From: a virus
Virus record (IMG/VR): IMGVR_UViG_3300030108_003783
Coordinates: 69,731 to 133,730 of that record
Length of the DNA stretch: 64,000 nucleotides
Strand: one strand, 5' to 3'
Shown: piece after piece, positions 8,497-58,857 of the stretch
Layout: the number at the start of each line of letters is the position of its first letter
How positions within the stretch are numbered: position 1 is the stretch's first letter
The notes under the pieces: model-generated
The model's database searches: none
What the model was told of the DNA's origin: nothing
What the model saw: the letters and a program-made list of their open reading frames with translations, nothing else
Position numbers and translations under genes: made by a program

Positions 8497-8733
8497 ATGA
8501 CAAAAAAGGAATTAATTTACAAGTACCAATTAGGAAAAGATTATCAAATCGAGCTGAATAACAACATGTTATACTATAAAAGACGTAACGAATTCAACGA
8601 TTTCGATTTAATTAAAGCTACTGAAGCTCCATCGAAAATGTATGGTCATCACGAATTAAAAGAACATGTTCAAGATTTATCTAAAAAAATGGGATTACCT
8701 ATTTTAAATGCTATAACCGGTTCAGCTGTCTAA
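8497..8733 (+). CDS. Early hypothetical protein
   Basis: Follows operator+promoter unit. Confidence 0.7.
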   Translation: MTKKELIYKYQLGKDYQIELNNNMLYYKRRNEFNDFDLIKATEAPSKMYGHHELKEHVQDLSKKMGLPILNAITGSAV

Positions 8734-8734
8734 T

Positions 8735-8765
8735 TGTTAATAACTATTTCAAAAATGTTAATAAC
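8735..8765. promoter_or_regulatory. Pair of TGTTAATAAC boxes
   Basis: 8735 and 8756; also 15822, 15843, 18246, 19072, 20910. Confidence 0.7.
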
Positions 8766-8839
8766 TTCAGTCCAATTTATTTGGATATGTCAATAATTAA
8801 TCTTATATTTATATATAAATAATAACAATCACTACTAAT

Positions 8840-10729
8840 ATGGGTTATACAAAATCAAACAATTTTTCTTCTTTCTGGTTAGATGGTTCTAACAATATAG
8901 ATATCCTAACTGGAGAAAAGATTTCAAGTGGTAAAGATTACATCAAAATGGCTTCAACATTAAAAGCTATCGGAAACTTTGTTAAAATCGTTTCTGGTAA
9001 TGATGTTAAAGTTGAATATAGCAATAGAGATGAATCTTACACAGATGGTAAAACAGTTACTATCACTTCAAAAGTAAACGGTAAATCATTTGATTCTACT
9101 GTTGGTCTTGCTTTACACGAAGGATCTCACGTTAAATTATCAGACTTTAGTTTACTTAAACATTTAATGAGTTACCAAGGTAAAGATTTATTAAAAACAA
9201 GATTTAATTTCGAAATCACTGATGATATGGAATTAAAAGGTTTATCAGTTATGATGCTTAAAGACCTTATCAATGTTATCGAGGATAGAAGAATCGATTA
9301 TCATATCTTTACTACTGCTCCAGGTTATCAAGGTTATTACAATGCTTTATACGATAGATACTTTCATGCTAAAGTAATAGATAAAGCTATATTATCTTCA
9401 GAGCATAGAGAAGAAAATATTCAATCTTACATGTTTAGAATTATTAATATAACTAATTCAAACAGAGATTTATCTGCTCTTAAAGGTTTAAAAGAAATTT
9501 ACAATATAATCGACCTTGCTAATATTTCAAGATTAAAAACAACAGGAGAGGTAATTGAAACAGCTATTAAGGTTTTCAAAGCTTTAGATAAATACATTCC
9601 AATTACAACACAAGATGGTGAATCAAAAACTACTGGTAAAGATAAAAAATCAGATTTATCTCCAAATGAAAAAAGCAAGTTAAAAAAAGCTATTCAAAAG
9701 CAAAAAGATTTCATCAGAAACAATATTCAAAAGTCTTCTATACGTAAATCAGAAAAGAATAAAATAAATGCTATTAATAGCTCAAAAGCTACATACGAAA
9801 AAGTTGGTGATCAATTTCAAAGTCACTGGCTTAAATCTTCTGGAGTTGATTGCTTAGTTGTTAGAAACATAAACAAAGCTGTTATCAATTCTAATATCTT
9901 TGAGACTATCAAATCAGAAGGTCATTACTATCACAGAACAAAAGACAATCAAGAATCTATCGATAGAGGTATTACATTAGGTACTCAGCTTGGTAGAAAG
10001 CTTCAAGTTAGAAATGATTCAAGAAGCTTACAATTCAATCGATTAAATCAAGGAAAGATTGATAAAAGAATGATTGCTTCAGCTGGTTTTGGTAATGAAA
10101 ATATATTTCAACAAGTTTTTATTGACAATCACAAAGATGCTAATGTTCATATTTCCATTGATGCTTCTGGTTCTATGTCAGGTACAAAATGGGACAAATC
10201 AATAACATCAGCAGTTGCTATTGCTAAAGCTGCTTCAATGGTTGGTAATTTAAATGTTACTATATCTTTCCGTTCAACAGAGCAACAAGGAAAGAAATAC
10301 ATTCCAGCTATTTTCATTGCTTACGATTCAAAGGTTGATAAAATTTCAAAGATTCAAAATCTATTTAAATACATCACTTGTCCTGGTACTACACCAGAAG
10401 GTTTATGCTTCGAAGCTATTCAAAGAGAAATCGTTCAATCTTCAAACAATTTAGATAGTTACTTCATAAACTTTTCAGATGGTGAACCTTATTTTGAAAA
10501 TGGACAAATTCAATACTGGGGAGATTCAGCTGCAAAACATACAGCAACTGAAATCAAAAAGTTTAGAGATAAAGGTATCAAAGTTTTATCTTACTTTATT
10601 ACTGGTTCTGATGAATCAACAACTTCATCCAATTTTAAAACTATGTACGGACCAGATGCTAGCAATGTTAACGTCAATAATCTTAATCAGTTAGCTAAAA
10701 CGCTTAACAATATGTTTATAGAGAAATAA
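8840..10729 (+). CDS. Metallopeptidase-like + vWA domain protein (CobT-like partner of MoxR AAA)
   Basis: LHEGSH, NVIEDRRID; C-terminal MIDAS DASGSM, GTTPE, FSDGEP. Confidence 0.8.
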   Translation: MGYTKSNNFSSFWLDGSNNIDILTGEKISSGKDYIKMASTLKAIGNFVKIVSGNDVKVEYSNRDESYTDGKTVTITSKVNGKSFDSTVGLALHEGSHVKLSDFSLLKHLMSYQGKDLLKTRFNFEITDDMELKGLSVMMLKDLINVIEDRRIDYHIFTTAPGYQGYYNALYDRYFHAKVIDKAILSSEHREENIQSYMFRIINITNSNRDLSALKGLKEIYNIIDLANISRLKTTGEVIETAIKVFKALDKYIPITTQDGESKTTGKDKKSDLSPNEKSKLKKAIQKQKDFIRNNIQKSSIRKSEKNKINAINSSKATYEKVGDQFQSHWLKSSGVDCLVVRNINKAVINSNIFETIKSEGHYYHRTKDNQESIDRGITLGTQLGRKLQVRNDSRSLQFNRLNQGKIDKRMIASAGFGNENIFQQVFIDNHKDANVHISIDASGSMSGTKWDKSITSAVAIAKAASMVGNLNVTISFRSTEQQGKKYIPAIFIAYDSKVDKISKIQNLFKYITCPGTTPEGLCFEAIQREIVQSSNNLDSYFINFSDGEPYFENGQIQYWGDSAAKHTATEIKKFRDKGIKVLSYFITGSDESTTSSNFKTMYGPDASNVNVNNLNQLAKTLNNMFIEK

Positions 10730-12855: not shown

Positions 12856-13026
12856 ATGGAATTAACAGCAATAATAATTTTTGGAATAGCATGTTTTGCA
12901 TTAGGAATGTATTTTACTACACAAATTTCTGAATGGATAAGCGACAGAACACAGCACAAAAAATTTATAAAGAATTTAGAGAATTATGGCAAAGAAAAGA
13001 ACACTAGACGAACTAAGACAAAGTAA
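12856..13026 (+). CDS. Small single-TM protein (56 aa)
   Basis: Manual translation MELTAIIIFGIACFALG..; AAGGA upstream. Confidence 0.5.
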   Translation: MELTAIIIFGIACFALGMYFTTQISEWISDRTQHKKFIKNLENYGKEKNTRRTKTK

Positions 13027-13465
13027 AACTTTCGGTTATAAAGCTCCAATCTCCAAAAGACAAAAGAAACTAGATGAGACATATATTAAAATGGCTGAAA
13101 TCTGGTCAAAACAATCTCATTGCGAAAGAGCTCAAGTTGGAGCATTAATAGTTAAAGACAAAATGATAATCTCAGACGGATATAATGGAATGCCATCTGG
13201 CTTTAAAAACACTTGTGAAATGGGAGATTCAACAAGATGGGAAGTTTTACATGCAGAAGCAAATGCAATTTTAAAATGTGCTAAACATGGTAAATCTTGC
13301 GATGGAGCTACATTATATTTAACTATGAGTCCATGTAGAGATTGTAGTAAATTAATACATCAAGCAGGCATTATTCGAGTTGTATACAAAGATGAATATA
13401 GAGAAAGAGCTGGTATTGATTTTTTACAATCTGCTGGCGTAATTGTTGATAAAATATTTGGATAA
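12986..13465 (+). CDS. dCMP deaminase
   Basis: GYNGMPSG, HAEANA, SPCRDC. Confidence 0.92.
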   Translation: MAKKRTLDELRQSKTFGYKAPISKRQKKLDETYIKMAEIWSKQSHCERAQVGALIVKDKMIISDGYNGMPSGFKNTCEMGDSTRWEVLHAEANAILKCAKHGKSCDGATLYLTMSPCRDCSKLIHQAGIIRVVYKDEYRERAGIDFLQSAGVIVDKIFG

Positions 13466-13507
13466 GTCGCAAAATTTTCTTATATTTATATTATATAAGA
13501 GGAAAAC

Positions 13508-13669
13508 ATGATAACGTATTTATTAATAGGTATATTGCTAATGTGGATAATAGAGATAGGCTCACCTTATCTTTGGACCATTCAAGAAAGAATCGGTATA
13601 ATTTTACTTTGGCCTTTTGCTGCAATGATTATGCTAAACGCACTTTGGAAGAGATTTAATGATGAATGA
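13508..13669 (+). CDS. Small membrane protein (53 aa)
   Basis: Manual translation MITYLLIG..LLWPFAA; follows promoter 13457. Confidence 0.5.
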   Translation: MITYLLIGILLMWIIEIGSPYLWTIQERIGIILLWPFAAMIMLNALWKRFNDE

Positions 13670-15334: not shown

Positions 15335-15641
15335 GTAATGGCGTTTATTATATAAGAGTATAGCTATATATGAATATACAAAGGCTGAAAATAATTTGCT
15401 AAATAATCTAAAAATGCTGGGCCGTGTGTCCCGAGAATAGCTTTTTTTTGCCGGCTAACACAGTTATTTTAGGCCCAAATAGGCTAAGGCCATACGGGAT
15501 ACCAAGGTCATACACACGCTTATATGAGCTAATACACCGATGCCAAATTGTCATAGAGGTTTTGACAAATTGTCACCTAAAAAATTTTTTTATGTCGAAA
15601 ATTTTTCTTATATTTATATATAAATTAAAACATTCATCACT

Positions 15642-15827
15642 ATGACAAACGTATTTGCTTTAATCGGTGCTACCTTATCTTTCTTTACTGCGTATCTTAC
15701 AGGTACTGGAAAGATCTTACAAATAATTTCTTTTGCTGATCCTTTAAATGAAATGGGATTCTTTATTGCTTGTATTATGCTTGGCACTTGTTGTTTATTT
15801 TCAATTGAAACTAAAAAGAATTGTTAA
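15642..15827 (+). CDS. Early two-TM membrane protein
   Basis: Follows operator+promoter; hydrophobic. Confidence 0.6.
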   Translation: MTNVFALIGATLSFFTAYLTGTGKILQIISFADPLNEMGFFIACIMLGTCCLFSIETKKNC

Positions 15828-15926
15828 TAACTTTACTAATATTGTTAATAACTAACCGCTAAAATATTTGGATATGTCGAATATTTGTCTTATATTTATA
15901 CTATAATTAATTAAACACTACACTAC

Positions 15927-17126
15927 ATGAAGTACATTTTAAAAATTAATGATGTTACCGAAACAGTAAACTGCTCTGTTGGTAAACATACATTTAGCTT
16001 TCCTCAACCGTTAGCTATTAAAAAAGCAAAAGCAGCTTTAAGAAAAGGCAACAACTTAACCGTTGATGCTACTACTATAGAGTCTAAAGCTTTTGGGACT
16101 AGCTCTCAAAAAGTTAGCACATTCAAAAAAGTTCCAAAGGACTTAGAGCCTTTCTGGAACGAATATACTCCTCCGGTTAATCAAGAACATGCAGATATGA
16201 TGTCATTCATACACAATGATTCTGTTGCTCTTAGACCTTCGCTATTAATGCTACCAGATCTTAAATGGAAATATTTAATAAGGTCTGCAATGAGAGGAAA
16301 GAATATTATGATGACTGGAGCTGCTGGTTCCGGTAAAACAATGGCCGCTAAGGCACTGGCTAATTCATTAGATAGACCAGAGTTCTATTTCAATCTAGGT
16401 GCTACTCAAGATCCTAGAGCTACATTAGTTGGTAATACTCACTTCTCTAAAGATTCAGGGACTTTCTTCTCAGAGAGCTCTTTCGTCAAAGCTATTCAAA
16501 CACCTGATGCTATTATTCTACTAGACGAGTTATCAAGAGCTCACCCTGAAGCTTGGAATATACTAATGACAGTATTAGACCCAGGTCAAAGATACTTAAG
16601 ATTAGATGAAGCAAAGGACTCACCTACTATTCAGGTTGCTAAGGGAGTTTGCTTTATCGCTACTGCTAATATAGGAAATGAATATACCTCAACAAGAGTT
16701 ATAGATAGAGCCTTATTAGACAGATTTACAATTATTGAAATGGACCTTCTTTCAAAAGAAAAAGAAGAAAGCCTTTTACTTCAAATGTTTCCAGAAGCAG
16801 ACAAAGACATGATTGCTAATATAGCTTCCATAGTATCTGCTACTAGAGATGAAATGAAAACTGAAATACCACGTATTAGTACATCAGTTTCAACAAGAGC
16901 TTCAGTTGAATTTGCTTCTTTATGTTATGATGGCTTCTCACTCGAGGAAGCTGCATCGGTTACAGTATATCCATTATACGATGATGCTGGTGGTCTTGAT
17001 TCTGAAAGAACATTCATCAAACAGCTAGTTCAAAAGTTCATACCTGCTAATACGGATGAAAATTTATTTAATACTGAGTCTGAAGAGGAATTATTCACTG
17101 AAGACGATATAAATCAAACAAGTTAA
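15927..17126 (+). CDS. MoxR/CbbQ/CobS-like AAA+ ATPase
   Basis: GAAGSGKT, ILLDELSRA, ATANIG, DRALLDRF, STR. Confidence 0.88.
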   Translation: MKYILKINDVTETVNCSVGKHTFSFPQPLAIKKAKAALRKGNNLTVDATTIESKAFGTSSQKVSTFKKVPKDLEPFWNEYTPPVNQEHADMMSFIHNDSVALRPSLLMLPDLKWKYLIRSAMRGKNIMMTGAAGSGKTMAAKALANSLDRPEFYFNLGATQDPRATLVGNTHFSKDSGTFFSESSFVKAIQTPDAIILLDELSRAHPEAWNILMTVLDPGQRYLRLDEAKDSPTIQVAKGVCFIATANIGNEYTSTRVIDRALLDRFTIIEMDLLSKEKEESLLLQMFPEADKDMIANIASIVSATRDEMKTEIPRISTSVSTRASVEFASLCYDGFSLEEAASVTVYPLYDDAGGLDSERTFIKQLVQKFIPANTDENLFNTESEEELFTEDDINQTS

Positions 17127-18666: not shown

Positions 18667-19077
18667 ATGAATTTCGAAATTAAAGACGATCTTATATACT
18701 CTGACTATCTTAATAGCTGGGTATTCATTGAAGACTATCTACTAATGATAGTAAACGATGCTGCTGAAACAATGAAGTCTTCAGCTACATTAAAATTTGT
18801 TTCTGCTAGCGATTCAGATGGTAATCGTTGGAAGTATCCCACTATTGGAGTTTCTAATTCTCATCAAGCCGAATTGGTTTGTCAGTCTTTGCTAGACCAA
18901 GGTATTACAGCTCAGGTTGATCTTTATGAAGATGATGATGGTTATCCTGGTCAGCTAAGACAGATCTGGTCTGTTACTATTCCAGATATGGTATTCAAAG
19001 ATATTAATCTACCCAATTACGTAGACGACACAGTTTACAAATGGGATTCTGAAACAATGTCCTATGTTACCTGTTAA
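18667..19077 (+). CDS. Acidic hypothetical protein
   Basis: ORF. Confidence 0.7.
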   Translation: MNFEIKDDLIYSDYLNSWVFIEDYLLMIVNDAAETMKSSATLKFVSASDSDGNRWKYPTIGVSNSHQAELVCQSLLDQGITAQVDLYEDDDGYPGQLRQIWSVTIPDMVFKDINLPNYVDDTVYKWDSETMSYVTC

Positions 19078-19163
19078 TAACTTGTTTAAAAGTTTCTCTC
19101 TTTTTATTTGGATATGTCAAATAAATTTCTTATATTTAACTATAATTTAAAAATCACTACTAT

Positions 19164-19388
19164 ATGGCACAATGCATTAAATGTTTAGGACCTATGCCTC
19201 AAGGTCGATTAGATCTAGGATATAAGGTTTGCGTCAATTGCTCTACAACACAAGCATACAGTTGTATTGCAATCACCAATCACAAGACTGGTAATAATAT
19301 ACAAATAGTTTCTCAAGCTACTGCTTCTGCTTTTCGCAAAGCAACGCAAAGAAAGGGCTATGGTATTATGGCTGGCGTTAAAGGATAA
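19164..19388 (+). CDS. Small Zn-finger protein
   Basis: CIKC..GRLDLG..CVNC. Confidence 0.65.
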   Translation: MAQCIKCLGPMPQGRLDLGYKVCVNCSTTQAYSCIAITNHKTGNNIQIVSQATASAFRKATQRKGYGIMAGVKG

Positions 19389-19500: not shown

Positions 19501-19574
19501 GGACCGGTAGCTCAGCTGGATAGAGCATTAGCCTTCTAAGCTAACGGTCGAAGGTTCGAATCCTTCCCGGTTCA
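19501..19574 (+). tRNA. tRNA-Arg(UCU)
   Basis: Cloverleaf GGACCGG/CCGGTTC, D arm GCTC/GAGC, anticodon arm TTAGC-CTTCTAA-GCTAA, T arm GAAGG-TTCGAAT-CCTTC; CCA not encoded. Confidence 0.95.
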
Positions 19575-19598
19575 CTAACTTAAAATAAAATTACTACT

Positions 19599-20915: not shown

Positions 20916-21000
20916 TAACTTTTTCAAAATAGTCCTCAAAAAATTTCGATAAGTCGATTTTTTTGATTATATTTATATATAAATAATTAACTAATAATAA

Positions 21001-21480
21001 ATGACAAATAAGAAAATTTTATACATTGATATGGATGGAGTCCTTTGTGACTTCGATAGTAAAGCTGCTATGTCACCAAAACATATCAAAGATAAATATG
21101 GTGATAATCTTCATCGAGTTCCTGGGTTCTATAGAGATCTCCAACCTCTGCCAGGTGCAATTAAAGCTTACAAAGAATTATGCAAACACTATGATGTTTA
21201 TATTGCTTCAACACCAAGTTGGAGTAATCCTTCATGCTGGATAGATAAGAGACTTTGGGTTCAACAATATCTCGGACAAGATGCTTACAAAAAGCTTATA
21301 CTAACAAGTAACAAAGGGTTACTTAAAGGTACTGATGATGAGGGTGAACCTTATACATTAATCGACGACAATACATGGAATGGAGTTGAAGATTTCCAAG
21401 GAGATCATATACACTTCGGAACTGATGTCAATGCTATGAACTGGGACGATGTCCTTAAATTACTTTTGCCTAATGTTTAG
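21001..21480 (+). CDS. 5'(3')-deoxyribonucleotidase (NT5C-like HAD)
   Basis: IDMDGVLCDF, STPSW, K..W, LIDD. Confidence 0.85.
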   Translation: MTNKKILYIDMDGVLCDFDSKAAMSPKHIKDKYGDNLHRVPGFYRDLQPLPGAIKAYKELCKHYDVYIASTPSWSNPSCWIDKRLWVQQYLGQDAYKKLILTSNKGLLKGTDDEGEPYTLIDDNTWNGVEDFQGDHIHFGTDVNAMNWDDVLKLLLPNV

Positions 21481-22224: not shown

Positions 22225-22433
22225 TTACTAAAACATTTGGATAAGTCGAAAAAATTTATTATATTTAGTTAAAAACTTAAAATAAGTTATTACTCAATAA
22301 TCTTAACTTAATATAACTTATTAACTAATATAAAATATAACTAATATAATATTATTACAAATAGGAATTGTATATAATATTTAAGGAGGTAAGCCGAAAA
22401 TCCTTTTTAGAGTAGGCACATTTTAAAAATTAT

Positions 22434-22766: not shown

Positions 22767-22778
22767 AAGGAGAAAGTT

Positions 22779-23516: not shown

Positions 23517-23550
23517 GAGGTTAGAGGTAATAATATAAAGGAGTAATACT

Positions 23551-25554: not shown

Positions 25555-25627
25555 AAACATTTGGATAAGTCAAAAAAAATTGTTATATTGTATACTAATA
25601 TAAACCAACTCGTATTAGGAGAATATA

Positions 25628-40601: not shown

Positions 40602-40652
40602 AACTTAAGAAAACGTATATTTATTAGTATAAAATAAAGAGAGGAAAAACAC

Positions 40653-41300: not shown

Positions 41301-41312
41301 GAGGAATAAAAA

Positions 41313-44699: not shown

Positions 44700-44720
44700 A
44701 TTTTTGTTATATTTAGATTG

Positions 44721-48771: not shown

Positions 48772-48830
48772 CTTGATATTTATATATGAAACTTAAGGTA
48801 GACTTAAGTTGATATAAATAGGAGAAAAAA

Positions 48831-50918
48831 GTGATTCGTAAAAGAGCAAAGAGAAAGAACCTTGCCGGTGGTCAAAACTATTTGATCACGGATAACAAGT
48901 ACGATTCAGCCTATTTTAAAGTATCAGAATTAAAATCAGAATTACATGGTGGAAAGAATATCTTTAAATTAAAAGGTAATTCAGCTTTATTAGAAAAGGG
49001 TTATCCTGTAGAAATAGAAGTAACTATGGAAAACCAGGAAGAGCCAATCTATCATGAAGTAAATAAGTTTATAGATTCTTCTCAAAGGAGAATTATAACT
49101 ATCTATATATACCCAGAGCAAGATCCAGGTATTGCAACAATAACAATTGTTGGTGTAGCAAGAAGAAGACCTAATGGCAGATTAATACCTGAATCTTTTA
49201 AAGGTAAACGGAATGTAATATGGCAAAGAGAAGTTTTTGTAGATGCAGAAAAACCAAACATTACCGATATACTATTTGCACAGCAACCAAGAATAACTAT
49301 CAATGAACATGTAAAATCTGTTCTAAGTGAATCTTTCCAACAAGGTACAACATCAGAAGTAACATTACAAAACCAAGGAAGTATATCGTATTCTTATCCT
49401 CAAGAAAGCCCAGTTGGAGGTTTTGGTAGTAAAGGAGCTAATGTTCCCAATATAATTGCAACTGCAACGGGATTTACATTTTCTTCATCTATGGAAGGTG
49501 GAACTTTAACTATACCTAATCCAACTTCTACTGCAAACCCACAACCTAACAGCAATCTAACAAATATACCAGCTTTTAAAGCTAGTGGACAACCTAATAC
49601 TACAGATTACACTGCTTCTATAGTCCAAGTGATTAATTCTACTACAGCAAAACTTTCTACGCCATATCAATATGAATATTTTTATTCTCATACTACTTCC
49701 CCTTCAAAAGGGTTCCAAGGTCCAGTTTCATATGATATAAGAATTACATACTCACCATTTACTTTTTCTTCTAATACTTATAAGATAGCTTATAATCAAG
49801 AAGCCATAGATTTAACAGTGTCTTCTTTAAACAAAGTTTCTTATGCAAATATTATATTAGCAAATATAGATCCAATAGGTGGAGATGTATATAGAACAAA
49901 GGTGTCGATGAGAACTGCTGGGCTTCAAACTTTTGATTTACTAGCAGATGAAGTAATAGAGTCTAATGAATTATTAGTAGATGAAAATAACGTATTTAAA
50001 ATTCAAAAATTAGGCTTCTTCCCATCTGGTGATTCTGGACAAGCTATAACAAAATGGAATGCTACTATAGTAAAAAAAGACCCAACGTTTACAGCTACAC
50101 CTGAAATAAAAAGAGACTCTGAAACGCTAATAGATGCAATGATGATATCTGGTTCATTAGCATTATCTGGTTCAGCAAATAGAGATCAAAATTATGTAAG
50201 AGTTAATTGCACTAAACCTATACAAGTTTTTAAAGATTGTAATTATGTAATATCTTTTAAAACAAGAGCATTTACTGAATTAGACGACGAAAGAAATTCT
50301 AATAATAAAGGTAGAGCTGAAATGAGAGTTTATTTATCAGGTTCTGCAGTTGACGAATTTGTACCAGGATTAGGTGCTAGATTAGATGCTGGTCAATTAA
50401 GAGGCCCATCAGTATCACCTGTTAATATATTTAATCCTATAGATTTTAAAAATAATAATTTTAATGCTAATCCTCAAATGTTTATGAATGTTGCTAAGTC
50501 AAGTACAGTAGCTTTTGGAACACCAACAACAGAAGTAGGAATACCAGACATAGGAGCTAATTCATTACCAGCCGTTGATAAAGATCTTATGATCTTTGAT
50601 TTTACACCAGTTAGAGATGGAACTATAGTACCAGTATTTCAAGTAAAATTTGGTAAATGGGTTGTATCTCAAATTTCTATAAAGTCTGGTATAGAATCAG
50701 GTTTTACACCTAATCACACTATTATAGAAGCAAGAGTGCCAGAATATCAAAATGACGATATATTAGATTTTAAAATTGAATTTTTTAATATCAATAGTGT
50801 TAGATCCGATTTAATATTATTAAAAGAAAATATAAGTTTTGAAGGTGGTAATACTTATATAAATAATGAAGGATTTCTTGGTGAAGGTATAATTTTCGAT
50901 GGGAAGATAGGAGCATAA
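48831..50918 (+). CDS. Structural protein (tail-associated)
   Basis: Late promoter, AGGAG+GTG; beta-rich. Confidence 0.6.
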   Translation: MIRKRAKRKNLAGGQNYLITDNKYDSAYFKVSELKSELHGGKNIFKLKGNSALLEKGYPVEIEVTMENQEEPIYHEVNKFIDSSQRRIITIYIYPEQDPGIATITIVGVARRRPNGRLIPESFKGKRNVIWQREVFVDAEKPNITDILFAQQPRITINEHVKSVLSESFQQGTTSEVTLQNQGSISYSYPQESPVGGFGSKGANVPNIIATATGFTFSSSMEGGTLTIPNPTSTANPQPNSNLTNIPAFKASGQPNTTDYTASIVQVINSTTAKLSTPYQYEYFYSHTTSPSKGFQGPVSYDIRITYSPFTFSSNTYKIAYNQEAIDLTVSSLNKVSYANIILANIDPIGGDVYRTKVSMRTAGLQTFDLLADEVIESNELLVDENNVFKIQKLGFFPSGDSGQAITKWNATIVKKDPTFTATPEIKRDSETLIDAMMISGSLALSGSANRDQNYVRVNCTKPIQVFKDCNYVISFKTRAFTELDDERNSNNKGRAEMRVYLSGSAVDEFVPGLGARLDAGQLRGPSVSPVNIFNPIDFKNNNFNANPQMFMNVAKSSTVAFGTPTTEVGIPDIGANSLPAVDKDLMIFDFTPVRDGTIVPVFQVKFGKWVVSQISIKSGIESGFTPNHTIIEARVPEYQNDDILDFKIEFFNINSVRSDLILLKENISFEGGNTYINNEGFLGEGIIFDGKIGA

Positions 50919-50921
50919 TAA

Positions 50922-53900
50922 ATGGCAAATTTAAGAACACTAGATTATATGGGATTCAAAGCTGCTAGTTCTTCTTTAGGAACAAGCGGATGGATGTTCT
51001 GGTCTGGTTCAAAAGTTTTAACTGGATCTGGTGCAGCAAATGGTCTTGATACGACATACGATGGTATAGGGTTAGAAGCAGCTTTACATTCCGAAAGCTT
51101 TTTCAGATATTCAGCCTCTTCAGCTGGATCTGGTTTAGAAATTAGAACTGATACATTTTTCTTAGGATCTTCGGCACAATTTATTTCTGGGTCTGGTGGT
51201 AACATAGGAATATCTTCTTCTAACTTTGAATTAACTTCTGATGGTAATGTTACAATGCAAGGAACTATTACAGCTACTGCTGGTGATATTGGTGGCTTTA
51301 CAATTACTGATAAAGCTATAGCAAGTTCTGATCTTGCTTTAGTATTATCTGGGTCAGGAGTTATAACTGCATCATCTGGTAAGATTGGTGGCTTTGTATT
51401 AAGTGCAACATCAATAAGTAGTTCTGGTTTATTATTAAAATCTTCTGGACAGATAACCGGTAGTAAAGTTCAATTTACTGGAGGAGATATAGGAGGATTC
51501 GCATTAACATCAACTCAAATAAGTAGCTCTGGTTTATTGTTAAAATCTTCTGGACAGATCACTGGTTCAAAAGTATTATTCACTGGTGGAAAGATCGCAG
51601 GGTGGACTATAGATGAAGAAAAACTATCAAATACTGGTGTACATGTAAGTGCAAGTTATGGTATAAAAGCTTTTGACGCTACAGCTGCAAATAACGATTT
51701 TGTAGAATTAAAGTATAAAGCAAACGATAATTTTGGTATTATAGGAAAATCTGCAGGAAATACAATTTTCTCTTTAGGTAAGAATCTAATATCTGGTGTT
51801 GCAAATAATCAAATAGCTGGCTGGGAATTTGACAATGAAAAACTTACTGGTGGTGCAATGATTATTAGAAAAGATGGAACTATCGAATCTGATGGTTTTG
51901 CTTCAAATTTAGCTGGGTCTGGTTTTAGATTAACTGCTGCAAGTGGTGGTTTCTTAGAAGTAGAGAATGCAAGGATTAGAGGAACTCTGTCAACAGCTGT
52001 ATTTGAAAAAGAAGCAGTCAATGCAGTTGGTGGTCAATTGTATGTTGCAAACTCTACTACTTTAACTGGCTCTACATTCCCAACTACATTAGAACCTTCT
52101 GGATACACTTCTTCAGAGTATCCTGCAAATGAAACAACAATGTCAGTAGTAAATGTTACGGGCTTTGCAGTAGGAGAAATATTAACTGCAAAGAAAATAA
52201 CTGATACAGGTTTTGCAACAGAATATATGAAAGTTGAATCTTCTTCTAGATTTGCTGGAAGTAGTGATAATGACTTTACTGGTGCAATTTATGTAGAAAG
52301 AGGATTAGGTCAAAGTTTCGCTGGAGCTTCTGGTTCTCTTGGAGATGGAGGTGGTTCTGCTCAAGCATACTCTGGGTCACAAGTAATAGTATCAACTGGT
52401 AAACGGGGTACAGGGTATATTAGATTAAATGCTAATCCAAACGACCCAACAACGCCATATATAGATATAGTAGAAAGAACCGGGTCAGATGTTTATGATG
52501 TAGATTTAAAAGCAAGACTTGGAGATTTATCTGGAGTTACTGATTCTAAATTTAGCGATGGAGTAACTGGTTTTGGTTTATATACACAAAACGGGTATTT
52601 TTCTGGTAAGATAGAAGTCGCAAGTTTACCAGGGTTACCAACAAAAGATCCAACCTATCATTATGACTTTAATACAGGAAATGGATCAGTAGTATACAAT
52701 ACAGTTGGTACTGACTTAAATCATATTAGCGGTACTATTGTTAACCCTAATGATTGTTGGGTTTCTGGAAGTGGAAATTTTATAACAGGTGGTAAAGCTT
52801 TAAAATTTGAATCGGGTAAAAATACTCGTATAGAAATAGAAGATAGAGAATGGTACTATCCAGGAGGTTCAACTACTCCAATTAATTCTGCTAGTTTATC
52901 TGTTTGGATAAAACCTGAAAACGTTGCTCATACTGAACCGCAAATTGTTTGGGAAGCTGGGGGAGCATCAAATGGTAAATGTTTATACGTTAGTAGCAGT
53001 CACGTTTGGTTTACAGTTTGGGAAGGGTCTTCAAATAATTACGATGCTTTAAAGGTTTCTGCATCTATAGAATCTAATGTTTGGACTCATGTTGCAGCCA
53101 CAACTTATCATGGTACAGCAAGTATATATTTAAATGGTACTCACAAAAAGACTGAAACTGGGCATCCTGATATAAACACGAATGGAGTAAATTATTCAGG
53201 GTTTACAGGAATAGGAGCATCACATAATGATTCTGCAATAATAACTTCTAGTTTTACACAAACTTCAGGAGCTGTTTCTGGGGATGGTAAAAATCCTTTT
53301 ACTGGTTCTATAGACGAACTAAGAGTTTATGGTCATCACAAATTAACAGCCAATAATATTACAGCTTTATATCAATCGCCAGCAGGAACAGTTGGTGGAT
53401 CAACAGTTATAGAAGGTAATAGAATAAAAACTGGTAGAATACTTTCAACAAATTATGGAGCTTCAGTTGGTTCTGAAATAGATTTAGATAATGGTACAAT
53501 AAAATTAGGTGGCTCATCTGCTCCAGATTTTGCAGTAGATGAATCGGGAGCAGTAACTGCAAGTGCTGGTAAAATTGCAAGTTGGACAATTAATGCTTCT
53601 ACTTTAACTGGTGGTTCAACTACATTGAATTCAAATGGTACAATTACATGTGCAGATTTACAAGCATCAACTGGTGGAAACATTGCTGGCTGGACTATAT
53701 CTTCAACAAAGCTTTCAAAGAATGGTACTTCTAATGCAAATTATATGGCCTTAGATGCAGGAAATCAAAAATTACAAATTGGAGGAAATAGTAAAACAAG
53801 AGTAGAGCTTAGCGGAGGTTCATTACAATATTTCTCTGGGTCAAATAATACAGCATTTTTACAGACTGTAACATCTCCATCAACTATAGAAGTGATTACA

Positions 53901-54974
53901 AAACAAATAAAGTGGATGTCAATGAACAACACTCCAGATAATCTAGACACAAATAGAAAGTTTGCTGGATTAATAATAAGCGCTTCAAATCCCTCGTATA
54001 ATTTCTTTGGCCAAATGACAGCTTCGTATTATAATACTATGGGTATGCCTTTTACAAATACGGGTGACACCTTCTCTCCTACTGAATGGCATGGTCCAGG
54101 TACATTACAAGGTACATTTGCTAGTAACGGTTGGACTCAAACTCCCGAGTTTGTAGAATACGGTATAAACTTAAAAACGCCGGGATCTTTTTCTACTTTA
54201 TATGCATATCAACATAAATCTGAAAATAGAGTTCAACTTCCTACTGGTACATGGTATGGTCCAAGTCAAGGGCCACAGCCATCTCCAGGTGGTAATTTTG
54301 GAGGTAATAGTCTAGGAGGAATACCTTCTACAGATCATACAAAGGTTTTAGTTGGAGGAAGAGAGCAAGAATATTTTTCTCATAGATTTGCAACTTCCGG
54401 TAGTCACTCTTTACAAGGAGCGTTTTGGAATACTGCAAATGCAAATATTTCAAATGTACTATCAGAGATAGATTTTACATACAATAATACATATTCAGCT
54501 CCACAAGTATATGGGTTTCATTGCCAAATATCATCCACATCAACAACAGCTGCTAATCGTTATTGCTTTTATGGAGACGGAGGACATATTTATACTACAG
54601 GAGATGTCAGAGCTGGTGGAGATGTTGTTGCATTTCAAACGTCTGATAAAAGATTAAAATATGATATTAATACAATAGATTCTGCATTAACAAAACTTGA
54701 TAAAATAAATGGTGTATCTTTTAGATGGAAAAAATTAAACGATGAAAGAGCTCAAAAAATATCTAGAAATCACTTAATAACAAAGGGATTAGATTATGGA
54801 GTAATAGCTCAAGAAATTGAGAAAGTATTACCAGAAGTTGTAAGAACTGGAGATCATGGGTATAAATCTGTTAGATATGAAAAGATAATACCTTTGTTAA
54901 TAGAATCTATAAAAGAATTAAATGAAGAAGTAAAAACATTAAAGAAAAAATTAGGAGATAAAGATGCCGGGTAA
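50922..54974 (+). CDS. Tail fibre with LamG domain and C-terminal intramolecular chaperone (peptidase S74)
   Basis: G-I-G/AG-F/W repeats; WTHVA..FTGSIDELRVY; SDKRLK..GVIAQE..V.Y..IIPLLIESIKEL. Confidence 0.85.
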   Translation: MANLRTLDYMGFKAASSSLGTSGWMFWSGSKVLTGSGAANGLDTTYDGIGLEAALHSESFFRYSASSAGSGLEIRTDTFFLGSSAQFISGSGGNIGISSSNFELTSDGNVTMQGTITATAGDIGGFTITDKAIASSDLALVLSGSGVITASSGKIGGFVLSATSISSSGLLLKSSGQITGSKVQFTGGDIGGFALTSTQISSSGLLLKSSGQITGSKVLFTGGKIAGWTIDEEKLSNTGVHVSASYGIKAFDATAANNDFVELKYKANDNFGIIGKSAGNTIFSLGKNLISGVANNQIAGWEFDNEKLTGGAMIIRKDGTIESDGFASNLAGSGFRLTAASGGFLEVENARIRGTLSTAVFEKEAVNAVGGQLYVANSTTLTGSTFPTTLEPSGYTSSEYPANETTMSVVNVTGFAVGEILTAKKITDTGFATEYMKVESSSRFAGSSDNDFTGAIYVERGLGQSFAGASGSLGDGGGSAQAYSGSQVIVSTGKRGTGYIRLNANPNDPTTPYIDIVERTGSDVYDVDLKARLGDLSGVTDSKFSDGVTGFGLYTQNGYFSGKIEVASLPGLPTKDPTYHYDFNTGNGSVVYNTVGTDLNHISGTIVNPNDCWVSGSGNFITGGKALKFESGKNTRIEIEDREWYYPGGSTTPINSASLSVWIKPENVAHTEPQIVWEAGGASNGKCLYVSSSHVWFTVWEGSSNNYDALKVSASIESNVWTHVAATTYHGTASIYLNGTHKKTETGHPDINTNGVNYSGFTGIGASHNDSAIITSSFTQTSGAVSGDGKNPFTGSIDELRVYGHHKLTANNITALYQSPAGTVGGSTVIEGNRIKTGRILSTNYGASVGSEIDLDNGTIKLGGSSAPDFAVDESGAVTASAGKIASWTINASTLTGGSTTLNSNGTITCADLQASTGGNIAGWTISSTKLSKNGTSNANYMALDAGNQKLQIGGNSKTRVELSGGSLQYFSGSNNTAFLQTVTSPSTIEVITKQIKWMSMNNTPDNLDTNRKFAGLIISASNPSYNFFGQMTASYYNTMGMPFTNTGDTFSPTEWHGPGTLQGTFASNGWTQTPEFVEYGINLKTPGSFSTLYAYQHKSENRVQLPTGTWYGPSQGPQPSPGGNFGGNSLGGIPSTDHTKVLVGGREQEYFSHRFATSGSHSLQGAFWNTANANISNVLSEIDFTYNNTYSAPQVYGFHCQISSTSTTAANRYCFYGDGGHIYTTGDVRAGGDVVAFQTSDKRLKYDINTIDSALTKLDKINGVSFRWKKLNDERAQKISRNHLITKGLDYGVIAQEIEKVLPEVVRTGDHGYKSVRYEKIIPLLIESIKELNEEVKTLKKKLGDKDAG

Positions 54975-55368
54975 TAATAAAAAAATTAATGAACTTTGGA
55001 AAGCAACACCAGGTGGATTAGGGTTAATGTATGCAGTTCAAGGGCCGCCTTATTTAAATCAAAGAGGAAACCAATATGCACCTTCAGCTGGTCCAGGAAC
55101 TCCTAACTCTTCTTTAAGACAAAGATACGACGATTGTAAAGCATTAGCAGATGTATATTCACCTTTCAATCCTAATGGTTATACTTTCGATGATGGTAAT
55201 TTAGTGGGAGGGTCTGTAGCTAATCAAAAAATTAGTCACTTCCAAAATACAGATTTAGATGGGGGCTCTGGTTTAGTAGGGGGGACATTTATTAACAGGA
55301 TTATAACCTTTGATTTTTCAACATGGACAATGGTAATTACGAACCAAAATGATTTAAAATTTGGATAG
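54964..55368 (+). CDS. Hypothetical protein, fibre-associated
   Basis: AGGAG RBS. Confidence 0.65.
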   Translation: MPGNNKKINELWKATPGGLGLMYAVQGPPYLNQRGNQYAPSAGPGTPNSSLRQRYDDCKALADVYSPFNPNGYTFDDGNLVGGSVANQKISHFQNTDLDGGSGLVGGTFINRIITFDFSTWTMVITNQNDLKFG

Positions 55369-55377
55369 GAGTATTAT

Positions 55378-57861
55378 ATGCCAATAACACAAAACGCTTT
55401 AATGCCTATATCAGGAGGATTTGCATTTATCCCATCAGCTTCAAACGAAGTGCCGGGAACAGCAATCACAGCTTCTACTTCAGAAATTGTAAAATTAAAT
55501 TTTTTAAATAATCCAGTTTCTCTTTCAACTTATTCTGGTTCTAACTTTACAGGATTGGAATACTTTTTTGCAGCTGGCCCTTATTATAATCATTTATTTT
55601 ATTTCGTTTCTACTTCAAATACTGAACCAGTAATAGAAAGTCACTTTGCTCTAGAGGGTCCATTGTCTGCTTCTACTCTAACAACACAAAATACTCATTT
55701 TTACAAAGTAGCATTAGCTTCTTCATCTACTCATGTAGATATGATTAGAGCTTTTACTGCTTCTGTAGCTTCTGCTGGAACAAGTGGTTCTTATATATTC
55801 TTAAGTTCATCTGAAGCTAATAGGTCTGTTGATGTAAGGTTTTTAGCTGGAACACCTTCTCATTCTTCACATTATCCAACGTCTTCTTTTATTTCTACTT
55901 TTTCTGCTTCAACTGATTCTTATGTTAGTAGTTCAATAGTACAAAGAGGATCTGGTGAAGTTAATACTGCTTTCTTTTCTGGGACTCCAAACGTTTTATC
56001 TTCTTCAACTGAAATGTTTATTGATAAAAATGATGGGACTTCATTTATAATTACAGGATCTTCCAATGCTAAATTTTATTTATCAGGATCTGGTAAAATT
56101 GGAATCGGAACAGAAGAGCCTCTAGCAGATATAGATTTAAGAGCAGATCAATTGCAAATACAAAATCAATCTAATAGAAGAGGAATTAAATTAAATGATG
56201 AAGGAAACATAGAAAGCTTTGATAGAACTTCTGGGGGAGCAACAACTGGAAGTGAATTAATATTAAGATATTCAAGAGGAGTTACTGTTTCTAGAGCTAT
56301 GTTATTAGCAGTTACTGGTGACGATTTTGATACTGAAGAAGGTGCTACAAATGCTTTTAATGATTTCCCGCCAGATGTACAACAAAGCATATTAAGCAAA
56401 GGTGAAGCTCTTGGGTTTATTTCTCCTGGTCAAGCTGGAGATACACTAGGAGCTATAAGATGGGTAGCTGAATCTGGCTCTTTAGGTGATTATGATGAAA
56501 GAGTCTCTGGAGAGGCTGCAGTAATAAAAGCAGTTATTGACGATAACGATGCAACTGGAACAGCAGCAGATTTAGTTTTCATGACAGCCGGAAAATCTGG
56601 AGCAGCAGTCCAAAGATTATTATTAGAATCTAATGGTGCAAATCAAATAACAGGGTCTTTATCTATAAATGGAACCGTAAGACAAACTGGTAATCATATT
56701 GTAGGAGGCTATGTAAGTATGAGTGGCCATTTAAAAGGTAAAAATTCTGGAGATGGTTCTTCTGATATAAGCGGTTTTGATGACTTAAGTATATTCGGTA
56801 ATGCAACATTAGGTAACAATGGAAATGAGATTCATACATTCTATGGAAACTTAACTGGGTCAACACTTAGTAGTGGAGGAAATATAAAAGCAAAAAATAT
56901 AAATCTTTCTGGAGATTTAACTGCAACTAATATTAATGCTACTAGTTTAACAGTTACAAATATAACTTCTTCTAATTTAACTTCTTCTATAATAATAACA
57001 AGCGGATCAAATATCTTTGGAGATACCTCTGCAGATACACATACTTTCAATGGAAGTATTACAGCATCTAATGATATAAAGGTAAGTGGTAAAGTTATAG
57101 CAGATCTTGCCAATGGATTATATTTAGGCACTACTCAAGCTGTATATGTTGATAGCGGAATATTCTATGTTGGAGCTGCTGGTGCTAATTCTCATATAGA
57201 TGGAGCAGATATAGAATTAGATGCAACAGGAGATATAGATTTTGATGCTGCAGGTAATGAGGTAAAATTTTCAAAAGCAGGAACAACGAGAGTTACTATA
57301 AATACTCTCACAGGTAATATAACAGCTTCAGGTGATATAAGTGCAAGTGGAGAAATATACTCTGCAACAAAACAATATTGGTCAACAACTGGTAGATTAG
57401 TAGTTTCTAATAATACAACAAATTATTATGGTCCAAACAATCAAGGTGTTAATTATTATTATTGGAATAGAGATTTAGGAACATCATCAACTACGATTAC
57501 AAGCAAAACTCAAACACTGAATTCTGGCTTCAAGTTACCTTATAAAGCTATATTAACTGGTTATCATTTAAATATACAAGGAAGATCTACTACCGACGAT
57601 ATTAAATTTACATTAGTATATTCTAATGGAATGTTTGATGGAGATGTTACAAGTACTTCTCAAACTCTAGCAGAAGCAGAATCTGAACAAACTATAACTA
57701 TATCAGCACAAAATAATTTTTATGAACTAGACAGAAGAGGTCAATTTGCAATAGCAGTTAATCCTATGACAATGCTATACCCAAGATTTAGAAAAGCAGC
57801 TGCAACTGGTGGAACAAATTACGACTTTCAATTAGCTGTAGAATATATAATAGCAAAATAG
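55378..57861 (+). CDS. Tail fibre-like protein
   Basis: GKIGIGT, GSNIFGD..DTHTFNGS, GNITASGDISASG. Confidence 0.7.
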   Translation: MPITQNALMPISGGFAFIPSASNEVPGTAITASTSEIVKLNFLNNPVSLSTYSGSNFTGLEYFFAAGPYYNHLFYFVSTSNTEPVIESHFALEGPLSASTLTTQNTHFYKVALASSSTHVDMIRAFTASVASAGTSGSYIFLSSSEANRSVDVRFLAGTPSHSSHYPTSSFISTFSASTDSYVSSSIVQRGSGEVNTAFFSGTPNVLSSSTEMFIDKNDGTSFIITGSSNAKFYLSGSGKIGIGTEEPLADIDLRADQLQIQNQSNRRGIKLNDEGNIESFDRTSGGATTGSELILRYSRGVTVSRAMLLAVTGDDFDTEEGATNAFNDFPPDVQQSILSKGEALGFISPGQAGDTLGAIRWVAESGSLGDYDERVSGEAAVIKAVIDDNDATGTAADLVFMTAGKSGAAVQRLLLESNGANQITGSLSINGTVRQTGNHIVGGYVSMSGHLKGKNSGDGSSDISGFDDLSIFGNATLGNNGNEIHTFYGNLTGSTLSSGGNIKAKNINLSGDLTATNINATSLTVTNITSSNLTSSIIITSGSNIFGDTSADTHTFNGSITASNDIKVSGKVIADLANGLYLGTTQAVYVDSGIFYVGAAGANSHIDGADIELDATGDIDFDAAGNEVKFSKAGTTRVTINTLTGNITASGDISASGEIYSATKQYWSTTGRLVVSNNTTNYYGPNNQGVNYYYWNRDLGTSSTTITSKTQTLNSGFKLPYKAILTGYHLNIQGRSTTDDIKFTLVYSNGMFDGDVTSTSQTLAEAESEQTITISAQNNFYELDRRGQFAIAVNPMTMLYPRFRKAAATGGTNYDFQLAVEYIIAK

Positions 57862-57870
57862 GAGATAAAA

Positions 57871-58857
57871 ATGGCAATAAAGAAGTTTTTAGATTTAGAA
57901 AATGAAACAGATAGCAAATTTAACGTTGTTAAAGCTGCTGTTAAAAGAGCTAATATAACAGAAAGATTTGACGATTCAACAGATAATGATAATCCTTATG
58001 ATGATGCATTACAATACATGAATAAAAAAATGGATCAATGTATTGATACTATAAATGCAAATAATAGTGCATCAGGATCTTTAGAAACGAAAGTTAAATC
58101 TTTAACTGCAGCTTCTGCATCTTTTTCTACAAGAGTAACTGCAAATGATGCAAAGACTCCATTAGTGATAGGTACAAAATCTAATCAAGCTTTAAGAGGT
58201 GACACTGTTACTATTACAAATGATCAAGCAAATGCAATAACTGCTAACACTGCAAAAGTTAGTATGGTAATAGGGTCAAAACCAACACAAGCCATGGCAG
58301 GTAATACTACAACTATATCAGATAGTCAAGCTGAAGCTATTACTACTAATTCAGCTAAAACTGGAATAACAACTTCTCAAGCAAATGCAATAACTGCTAA
58401 CACTGCAAAAAGAGATGCAAGATATATTTATTTTCCTGTTATTGCAAATTTCAGTGGTAATATAAACACAGAACAATTTGTACCCTTATCAGATGGTGAA
58501 ACAGAAGCAACTAATCAATTATTAAGAAGAAATAATTTTATAGCACCATGCGCAGGAAATATTCATAAAGTTTTTGTTAGAAGTAATTCAAGTTTATTAA
58601 CTAAAGGTAAGGGTGTAAGTATAACTGCAAAATTGCATAAATACATTAGTGGTACTAATTCAGACGTTTTAACATCAACAGCTACTGCAACAACAGGTGC
58701 TGGTGGAACAACTACGACTATAGATTTATCTGATGCTTCTGGCAATAGTTTTACAGCTGGTACTAGATTATTAGTTGGATTACAAGCTCCGTTGAATGCT
58801 ACTAAAAATTATTATGTAACAGTAGTATTTAAATTAGATCAAAGTGATTTGGATTAA
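57871..58857 (+). CDS. Fibre-like protein with QANAITANTAK repeats
   Basis: Internal repeats; beta-rich C-terminus. Confidence 0.65.
   Translation: MAIKKFLDLENETDSKFNVVKAAVKRANITERFDDSTDNDNPYDDALQYMNKKMDQCIDTINANNSASGSLETKVKSLTAASASFSTRVTANDAKTPLVIGTKSNQALRGDTVTITNDQANAITANTAKVSMVIGSKPTQAMAGNTTTISDSQAEAITTNSAKTGITTSQANAITANTAKRDARYIYFPVIANFSGNINTEQFVPLSDGETEATNQLLRRNNFIAPCAGNIHKVFVRSNSSLLTKGKGVSITAKLHKYISGTNSDVLTSTATATTGAGGTTTTIDLSDASGNSFTAGTRLLVGLQAPLNATKNYYVTVVFKLDQSDLD

Follow-up and report, generated by a model that had tools for sequence, protein, structure and literature searches.

A bS21-encoding marine relative of phage T4 with promoter-linked Shine-Dalgarno use: a possible switch of Bacteroidia ribosomes to Shine-Dalgarno reading

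Introduction

In the ribosomes of Bacteroidia, the 16S rRNA tail that carries the anti-Shine-Dalgarno (anti-SD) sequence lies hidden under proteins bS21, bS18 and bS6, and because it is tucked away these ribosomes ignore Shine-Dalgarno (SD) sequences (PMC7797042). Tyr54 of bS21, described as characteristic of the phylum, stacks against A1534, at the bend of the tail towards the bS18/bS6 pocket (Jha 2021, PMC7797042). In Flavobacterium johnsoniae, expression from strong-SD reporters rose 3-fold in vitro and by between 70% and 3-fold in vivo with the Y54A substitution alone, SD-less reporters being unaffected (McNutt 2023, PMC9976891), and the SD-anti-SD helix sterically shuts out the host bS21 (PMC13000457). 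Phages may carry bS21 as well: for freshwater Bacteroidetes phages, Chen 2022 proposed that the phage protein replaces its counterpart in host ribosomes, to the advantage of phage transcripts in late infection (PMC9723584), and the bS21 of HTVC008M (Mizuno 2019, PMC6375957) enters Escherichia coli ribosomes, as cited in PMC9976891. Here we analyse the right-hand 64 kb (the window) of the 133,730-bp virus genome IMGVR_UViG_3300030108_003783, in which genes behind one type of promoter mostly start without SD while those behind another are mostly SD-led, together with a bS21 gene located in the remainder of the genome.

An earlier note on the window had contrasted SD-less early genes with AGGAG-led late genes and suggested that the phage frees the anti-SD in mid-infection. 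Our analysis partly supports this reading and leads to a more specific proposal, to which we give a probability of about 0.5: a phage bS21 variant, with Tyr54 changed to Arg, a basic N-terminal extension and a Trp-bearing C-terminal extension, would switch SD-blind Bacteroidia ribosomes to SD reading and so open a private channel for the abundant late proteins of the phage. The switch protein itself and the pre-late mRNAs would be expressed from leaderless or G-free messages, and sister phages lacking bS21 would have lost every SD. The overall explanation, combining two translation channels, bS21-driven release of the anti-SD and a Flavobacteriaceae host, stands at the same odds.

Results

Shine-Dalgarno use follows promoter type

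Judging from PHROG and Pfam scans, the genome (GC 31%; 158 of 166 open reading frames (ORFs) on one strand; completeness estimated at 77% by a CheckV-type method) is that of a marine myophage distantly related to T4, and its DNA was matched in marine metagenome runs only, with no RNA run among those listed. The scans recognised virion genes (terminase, portal, prohead protease, gp23-like capsid, sheath, tube, gp25/gp6-like baseplate and fibres), replication genes (UvsX, SSB, a split family-A polymerase, DnaB, primase and SbcCD) and genes for ribonucleotide reductase (RNR), GroES/GroEL, Hsp20 and PhoH. Among phage records, the capsid protein is most similar to those of Microcystis phage Mel-JY01 (51% identity), Flavobacterium phage vB_FspM_immuto (49%; hereafter immuto) and Rhodothermus phage RM378 (36%), and the gene order of immuto is largely syntenic with that of the phage.

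An SD core, defined as GGAG, GAGG or AGGA at -18 to -4 of the start codon, precedes 68 of the 166 ORF starts (41%) genome-wide, against 7.3% of 2695 internal ATGs; in the + strand gene set it is found at 70 of 163 starts (binomial p = 4e-36). These counts are underestimates, since starts were assigned by a longest-ORF rule that missed those at 22779, 27135 and 28479 as well as the true capsid start (genome 11613, AGGAG upstream). In 43 of 60 cases, the core lies 6-8 nt ahead of the start codon, G is most frequent at -11 to -9, and an anti-SD duplex energy of -6 kcal/mol or lower occurs at 30% of starts versus 6-8% of controls. The SD signature is canonical in sequence, spacing and enrichment, and is predicted to pair on the host ribosome. 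All 18 starts listed as SD-led in the earlier note do carry AGGAG, GAGGA or GGAG upstream, and its eight SD-less starts (Table 1) have no core at -18 to -4 and anti-SD duplex energies of at least +2.9 kcal/mol each. Regionally, SD cores precede 4 of the 30 starts lying between 8.4 and 22.3 kb of the window versus 25 of 55 elsewhere in it (Fisher p = 0.0037), and by genome block, the structural one (1-30 kb) has them at 22 of its 31 starts and the replication one (30-50 kb) at 8 of 25.

The SD-less mode is linked to a 30-nt promoter-like unit, the GTC-box, made up of TTTGGATAWGTC, a gap of 10-11 nt and TTATATT, with 22 near-identical copies in the genome, 13 of which lie in the window. Eight of its first genes are of leaderless type, 11 have SD-less leaders and two are SD-led; the remaining copy precedes non-coding DNA. 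In the leaderless type, predicted from a start codon only 4-7 nt past TTATATT, are three genes of the window (Table 1) and those starting at genome positions 30019, 33970, 41884, 48331 and 49523. Such mRNAs, whose transcript starts are likewise predicted, would constitute a third class of starts that was absent from the earlier reading. The 11 SD-less leaders, 20-37 nt in length, belong to seven genes of the window (Table 1) and to those at genome positions 10035, 33563, 37023 and 43660. Leaders of this kind had been described as purine-poor; measured, they are G-poor (3.7% G, against 17.9% genome-wide) yet A-rich (53% A). They fit the SD-independent initiation of Bacteroidia, which uses A-rich, weakly structured leaders without SD (Baez 2019, PMC6847099), and the leaders of immuto are alike. 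The operators reported near the SD-less genes were recovered as the palindromes GACAAATTGTC (five copies genome-wide) and GTTAATAAC (nine copies, seven of them in the window), for a chance expectation of about 2 per strand, and all of them stand directly upstream of GTC-box promoters.

Intergenic DNA, 4% of the genome, contains 32 of the 62 + strand copies of another motif, (G)ATATTTAT(A). This ATATTTAT box precedes the sheath, hub, adaptor, PhoH, baseplate and fibre blocks, and also RNR, Hsp20 and GroES. The two promoter types differ sharply in the SD use of their first genes, since 2 of 20 are SD-led behind GTC-boxes versus 13 of 19 behind ATATTTAT boxes (Fisher p = 2.4e-4), and 55 of 124 genes with no promoter motif nearby are SD-led. 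The link between promoter class and SD anticipated earlier is therefore borne out, but the accompanying divide between early and late genes is not clean: most structural genes are SD-led, and so are SSB, UvsX, RNR, dUTPase and SbcCD. The SD split tracks promoter type, and gene function more loosely. The labels early and late, as used here, are presumptive and derive from gene function and promoter motifs.

Table 1. Promoter units, initiation regions and the host marker gene in the window (positions are those of the window)
Coordinates	Strand	Signals	Start	Gene
1892..1908	+	AGGAG-led	1906	
3080..3108	+	ATATTTAT box, SD AGAGGA	ATG 3106	
3586..3602	+	AGGAG-led	3600	
6310..6348	+	GTC-box, start six nt past TTATATT, predicted leaderless	ATG 6346	
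7394..7432	+	GTC-box, start six nt past TTATATT, predicted leaderless	ATG 7430	NUDIX
8129..8145	+	AGGAG-led	8143	
8385..8499	+	2x GACAAATTGTC, GTC-box 8438-8467, G-less SD-less leader	ATG 8497	
8736..8842	+	2x GTTAATAAC, GTC-box 8780-8809, SD-less leader	ATG 8840	CobT-like, 629 aa
12286..12390	+	ATATTTAT box, long leader, AGGAG	ATG 12388	Hsp20
12986..13465	+			dCMP deaminase, main host marker, Flavobacteriaceae-like
13457..13510	+	GTC-box, SD AGAGGA (exception)	ATG 13508	
15564..15644	+	GACAAATTGTC, GTC-box 15585-15614, SD-less leader	ATG 15642	
15823..15929	+	2x GTTAATAAC, GTC-box 15867-15896, SD-less leader	ATG 15927	MoxR/CobS-like AAA
18226..18354	+	three operator copies, GTC-box 18290-18319, SD-less leader	ATG 18352	
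19073..19166	+	GTTAATAAC, GTC-box 19107-19136, SD-less leader	ATG 19164	
19501..19601	+	tRNA-Arg(TCT), then SD-less leader	ATG 19599	DNA ligase
20911..21003	+	GTTAATAAC, GTC-box 20944-20973, SD-less leader	ATG 21001	nucleotidase
22236..22265	+	GTC-box before non-coding DNA		
22765..22781	+	AGGAG-led	22779	
23537..23553	+	AGGAG-led	23551	
25560..25630	+	GTC-box, AGGAG (exception)	ATG 25628	
27121..27137	+	AGGAG-led	27135	
28465..28481	+	AGGAG-led	28479	
28947..28963	+	AGGAG-led	28961	
29240..29262	+	ATATTTAT box, weak SD AAGGGA	ATG 29260	
31204..31248	+	ATATTTAT box, GAGGAG	ATG 31246	baseplate block begins
40617..40655	+	ATATTTAT box, GAGAGGA	ATG 40653	
41299..41315	+	GAGGA-led	41313	
44684..44723	+	GTC-box, start 4-7 nt past TTATATT, predicted leaderless	TTG 44718/ATG 44721	primase
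48776..48833	+	ATATTTAT box, AGGAG	GTG 48831	695-aa tail/fibre block gene
50908..50924	+	AGGAG-led	50922	1350-aa tail fibre
54950..54966	+	AGGAG-led	54964	
55364..55380	+	AGGAG-led	55378	
57857..57873	+	AGGAG-led	57871	

The phage bS21

A search for bS21 beyond the window, which the earlier note had suggested, found a gene for a protein of 111 aa at genome 10035-10370, between protease/scaffold-like genes and the capsid gene and on the same strand as its neighbours. A GTC-box promoter of its own and an SD-less leader of 37 nt precede this gene. Its product matches the S21 profile of PHROG (E 1.6e-11) and Pfam PF01165 (48.9 bits, with the cut-off at 27, and 50.6 bits when searched genome-wide). 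The best match among solved structures is the bS21 of the Porphyromonas gingivalis ribosome (43.8 bits; structure entry identified via PMC12123416), all others reaching at most 34.4 bits and that of F. johnsoniae (7jil_z) 26.2 bits. Residues 34-89 align without gaps to residues 4-59 of the P. gingivalis protein (E 2.5e-10), and about 30 further ribosomal bS21 match. By these profiles and alignments, the protein is a genuine member of the bS21 family, predicted to assemble into 30S subunits, but without the signatures of the Bacteroidia type, namely Tyr54 and a short, less basic C-terminus.

Arg84 of the phage protein aligns with Tyr54 of the Bacteroidia bS21. Column 54 was compared among 34 unique bS21 of relatives, the phage's own copy and five cellular copies: Arg occupies it in 34 of the 35 phage proteins and Tyr in the other one, while all three Flavobacteriales copies have Tyr and both proteobacterial copies have Lys. 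The N-terminal extension of the phage protein is basic. Its C-terminal part is long and rich in Lys and Arg, with a Trp in the extension that is common to all 31 long-type phage bS21, whereas the bS21 of Flavobacteriales hosts ends acidic or neutral; in Bacteroidia generally, the C-terminal part is short and less basic than in other phyla (PMC7797042). Since the nearest representatives among 1.8 billion proteins mix Arg-type and Tyr-type, they do not indicate a clear donor of the gene; the nearest Atlas clusters are viral. We also considered the N-terminal extension as a capsid-targeting leader of the T4 style, the motif of which is Leu/Ile-x-Glu, and dropped the idea as the extension has no such motif.

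Conservation and co-occurrence in related phages

Among orthologue pairs with co-linear N-termini, SD status agrees with that of the phage in 96 of 116 cases in relative G001 (138 kb, 74% mean amino acid identity) and in 40 of 51 in the more distant G005 (147 kb, 52% identity), so that selection appears to maintain the SD pattern gene by gene. G001 has the same promoter classes, with 8 leaderless arrangements at its 24 promoters.

A survey of 80 capsid loci on viral contigs left 37 evaluable ones (non-duplicate, with 2 kb or more of sequence ahead of the capsid gene and 8 genes or more). A bS21 gene, about 1.3 kb upstream of the capsid gene, is present in all 30 loci with an SD fraction of at least 0.25 and in none of the seven with a lower fraction (Fisher 1e-7). 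On the capsid tree, the SD-poor, bS21-less phages, immuto included, nest among SD-rich clades. The cultured control, immuto, is without bS21, and SD cores precede 6 of 88 and 1 of 56 of its starts, below its own background of 16%. At eight late orthologues (TerL, portal, protease, capsid, PhoH, adaptor, sheath and tube), SD is present at seven in the phage, at none in immuto and at about seven in Mel-JY01, which carries bS21 and has SD cores at 23 of 43 starts. The bS21 gene itself is SD-less in 28 of 29 long-type relatives, where TTATATT stands about 35 nt upstream. Four other relatives (L030, L037, L038 and L039) encode a short-type bS21 of 65 aa; these genes are SD-led and have no promoter of their own, and the proteins retain Arg at column 54.

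The probable host

From the gene and RNA similarities described below, the host probably belongs to the Bacteroidia, and most likely to the Flavobacteriaceae, an SD-blind lineage. In Flavobacteriales DNA (4 x 20 kb), an SD core precedes 1 of 83 genes, and the rpsU gene of one genome has an extended SD, as published. The kind of host presupposed by the earlier note is supported: the best evidence, from dCMP deaminase, the tmRNA tag and a tRNA, points to the Flavobacteriaceae, but the recorded host of Mel-JY01 and the permuted form of the tmRNA gene point elsewhere.

The dCMP deaminase gene is 68-75% identical to Flavobacteriaceae DNA; a 20-kb query matched 395 of 401 genomes and, among the 150 matches listed, all fall within this gene. 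The protein is 59-67% identical to those of eight Flavobacteriaceae loci (the G001 orthologue, 66.7%), and matches 12 of 121 Pseudomonadota genomes at 31-40%. Its nearest ESM Atlas clusters are mostly of Bacteroidota, and its best phage matches are gut and crAss-type records (51-61%), ahead of cyanophage S-TIM5 (50%). The predicted tag of the phage tmRNA, GKQVEYAMAA, resembles the Flavobacteriaceae tags GENNYAMAA, GEDNYALAA and GENNYALAA; the two proteobacterial tags compared have AND as their first residues. The tRNA-Arg shares 89% and 85% identity with two Flavobacteriales copies and 80% with that of a methylophilaceae genome. A Flavobacteriaceae host is favoured as well by two links to immuto, the C-terminus of a fibre protein described below and the promoter core cTTATATT. 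The searches for host genes took in Flavobacteriaceae and Pseudomonadota genomes, and an NCBIfam scan of 86 proteins found no host-specific marker.

The tmRNA gene is a permuted, two-piece gene (23283-23466; Rfam RF04321, 72.9 bits) directly behind a ATATTTAT box; as to its subtype, there is only a sub-threshold match to beta_tmRNA (42 vs 84 bits). Two further genes were tried as host markers and rejected, the sugar epimerase gene as uninformative and GroEL on account of a tree in which the four phage GroELs form a clade of their own outside all bacteria.

Other features of the genome

Some loci with GTC-boxes have peculiar arrangements. The PNK-like and NUDIX genes (6310-6357 and 7394-7441) share an identical promoter, near-identical downstream bases and the same first four codons, and look like a duplicated leaderless expression cassette. 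At genome 36981-37025 (L002:17981-18025), a two-codon ATG-TAA mini-ORF occupies the leaderless position, 11 nt before the start codon of an exonuclease gene. The CobT-like protein of 629 aa (8840-10729) and the MoxR/CobS-like AAA ATPase (15927-17126) are both encoded behind operator-bearing GTC-boxes. The closest phage homologues of the ATPase are found in Mel-JY01 (54%), a 484-kb uncultured phage and then a Bacteroides phage, and cyanophage CobS is absent from its phage matches. Behind the GTC-box at 22236 lie about 170 nt of non-coding DNA with a match to the DUF805b RNA (22383-22418; 40.5 bits against a gathering threshold of 35.6) that includes AAGGAGG. The non-coding stretch within 22236-22433 could represent a small RNA or else part of a leader; a literature search on DUF805b returned nothing useful.

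At the TerL start (genome, L001:2680-2720), GGAGG lies 37 nt upstream and is followed by a short inverted repeat, which might bring it nearer to the start codon, as in split ribosome-binding sites. A gene for a GIY-YIG homing endonuclease of the SegE type (44235-44699) is inserted between a fibre-block gene and the primase gene. Scans against PHROGs, Pfam and NCBIfam found no homologues of gp55, gp33 or MotA (143 proteins scanned with PHROGs, genome about 77% complete). Megablast of 8.6 kb of phage DNA against phage records gave zero matches. The tail protein encoded at 55378-57861 had no match in the phage-record search, and the last 130 residues of the fibre protein encoded at 59864-62494 match immuto only, among 50,697 phage records.

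Discussion

Two proposed translation channels

We propose that the phage has two channels of translation. Through the first, which is host-style, unmodified host ribosomes would translate mRNAs made from GTC-boxes that are leaderless or have a short, A-rich, G-free leader; its genes would include those for replication, nucleotide metabolism, small proteins of no known function and the phage bS21. The latter would take the place of the host bS21 on 30S subunits without being able to grip the 3' tail of the 16S rRNA, which would leave the anti-SD exposed. With the anti-SD free, SD-led phage mRNAs, chiefly those for the virion, would beat the SD-less host mRNAs. This second, private channel would serve the canonical AGGAG found 6-8 nt before the start of most structural and many operon-internal genes. 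The earlier idea of a freed anti-SD is thereby given a specific form, which we propose through the Tyr54-to-Arg change and through the way in which the bS21 gene itself is expressed.

Evidence against the proposal and alternative explanations

A number of observations weigh against this proposal. Several presumably pre-late genes are SD-led, while TerL has no SD nearby. As few as one or two evolutionary events may underlie the joint occurrence of bS21 and SD, since the label needs two changes on the capsid tree and one is also possible. Among the genes tried as host markers, the sugar epimerase is at most 32% identical in 41 Flavobacteriaceae genomes and has one match of 44% among 41 Pseudomonadota. 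The best identities of GroEL are to Bacteroidota (55-57%; others 49-55%), but GroEL is silent on the present host because the phage proteins branch apart from all bacteria.

Further observations of this kind bear on an alternative that survives better than the others but that we regard as unlikely: the host, a marine cyanobacterium or proteobacterium, would read SD normally, the phage bS21 would be an ordinary one of the non-Bacteroidia type, like those of other marine phages, and the SD-less first genes would reflect a promoter-proximal design. Arg or Lys at column 54 is the common state outside Bacteroidia (among 147 bS21 representatives, 78 have Arg, 11 Lys and 33 Tyr), and therefore Arg alone means only that the protein is not of the Bacteroidia type. 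Mel-JY01, the best capsid match among phage records, is SD-rich, carries bS21 and is recorded on Microcystis (our literature search found no paper on this phage); taken with immuto, it is in line with a simpler rule, namely that phages rich in SD have hosts that read SD. The permuted tmRNA form is known from Alpha- and Betaproteobacteria and Cyanobacteria, and permuted genes are frequent in marine phages, where they may differ from the form of the host (PMC9004378, PMC11915505). In the sigma-A promoters of Bacteroidia (TTTG / TAHHTTTG), T-6 and G-5 of the -7 element are near-invariant, and the phage promoters do not conform: sites for the TAHHTTTG consensus of F. johnsoniae are intergenic in 2 of 73 cases here and in 0 of 29 in immuto, a cultured Flavobacterium phage, both phages using cTTATATT instead. 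The phage promoter can also be read as TTGGAT-N17-TATATT. Avoidance of internal AGGAG in coding regions, which would be expected where the anti-SD is active, varied among genomes, with an observed/expected ratio (O/E) of 0.93 here, 1.00 in G001, 1.33 in immuto and 1.01 in Flavobacteriales DNA, and strong avoidance in G005 (0.32) and Mel-JY01 (0.20).

An SD-reading host is nonetheless hard to reconcile with a dCMP deaminase that is Flavobacteriaceae-like and at most 40% identical in 121 Pseudomonadota genomes, or with a tmRNA tag of the Flavobacteriaceae type rather than one beginning with AND. The position of immuto, nested among SD-rich clades on the capsid tree and sharing the cTTATATT core, speaks against it too, as does the CobS-like ATPase, whose matches include a Bacteroides phage and no cyanophage. 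It also leaves unexplained why SD and G are avoided at 18 of 20 promoter-proximal genes, and at the bS21 gene in 28 of 29 long-type relatives.

Less probable still is a second alternative, in which the host is a member of the Bacteroidia and the SDs are functional but read by a natural pool of 30S subunits without bS21 (immature or stripped), perhaps enlarged by other means, while the phage bS21 does another job such as ribosome competition or stabilisation. F. johnsoniae ribosomes without bS21 do translate the SD-led rpsU better (PMC9976891), the steric exclusion of host bS21 by the SD-anti-SD helix (PMC13000457) would work in the same direction, and the short-type bS21 genes of four relatives are SD-led themselves. 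Such a pool would not account for the perfect co-occurrence of bS21 with SD-rich loci (30/30 vs 0/7) or for the near-universal loss of Tyr54 (34/35), and general PHROG, Pfam and NCBIfam scans gave no candidate for a protease or other factor removing bS21. Finally, that no ribosome switch exists and mRNA architecture accounts for everything, short 5' ends needing or fitting no SD and internal or long-leader genes needing a purine tract for re-initiation or unfolding, is very improbable: zero leader at 8 of 22 promoters and the SD-led 55 of 124 genes away from promoter motifs would suit it, but the eleven GTC-box leaders of 20-37 nt are roomy enough for an SD yet G-free, ATATTTAT-box leaders of like length do carry AGGAG, conserved canonical SDs would be readerless in an SD-blind host, and the sister phage immuto manages without SDs on the same genes.

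Significance

The proposed switch by a phage bS21 joins two open questions, namely why Bacteroidia keep a hidden anti-SD and what the many phage-encoded bS21 do. It predicts that one small natural protein flips the mRNA selectivity of Flavobacterium ribosomes, and matched natural sets are at hand in the early and late initiation regions of the phage and in sister phages that have or lack the system. If true, it would show clearly that a virus can reprogram the specificity of ribosomes and not transcription alone, and could provide a tool for orthogonal translation in Bacteroidota.

Comparison with known systems

The proposal is a more specific form of an idea already known, in which a phage bS21 redirects ribosomes. 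A full-text literature search, whose coverage excluded subscription journals and supplements, found in the text accessible to it no paper tying a Tyr54-less phage bS21 to SD-led phage genes. Like T4, with its early, middle and late transcription programme, the phage has promoter types that sort roughly with pre-late and late functions, and its late-type box is a lone AT-rich element resembling a -10 sequence. To our knowledge, promoter class is not coupled to SD use in T4.

The closest parallel is the autoregulation of rpsU in F. johnsoniae, which shares with our proposal an anti-SD hidden by bS21, bS18 and bS6, the gain of strong-SD reading by ribosomes that lack functional bS21 or carry Y54A, and one class of SD-bearing mRNA in an otherwise SD-less setting (PMC7797042, PMC9976891, PMC13000457). 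It is, however, a one-gene host loop driven by the absence of bS21, whereas in the phage a variant protein would switch dozens of genes. The freshwater Bacteroidetes phages of Chen 2022 (PMC9723584) are also myophages with bS21 inside the TerL-portal-protease-capsid block. Position 54 is aromatic in all 61 of their bS21, which were interpreted as host-like in action, in contrast to Arg in 34 of 35 here; their bS21 gene lies on the opposite strand, and not, as here, on the same strand with its own promoter; and the accessible text does not discuss the SD content of phage genes. The rpS21 of huge phages (Al-Shayeb 2020, PMC7162821) has an N-terminal extension rich in basic residues, as here, and the available parts of that study and of Mizuno 2019 (PMC6375957) make no tie to anti-SD sequestration, Tyr54 or a split between SD and non-SD genes. 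In Francisella, as in our proposal, swapping bS21 variants shifts the mRNA preference of the ribosome (PMC9578407). Unlike the takeover proposed for the phage, the Francisella system is one of cellular paralogues and does not involve an SD-blind ribosome (PMC9578407).

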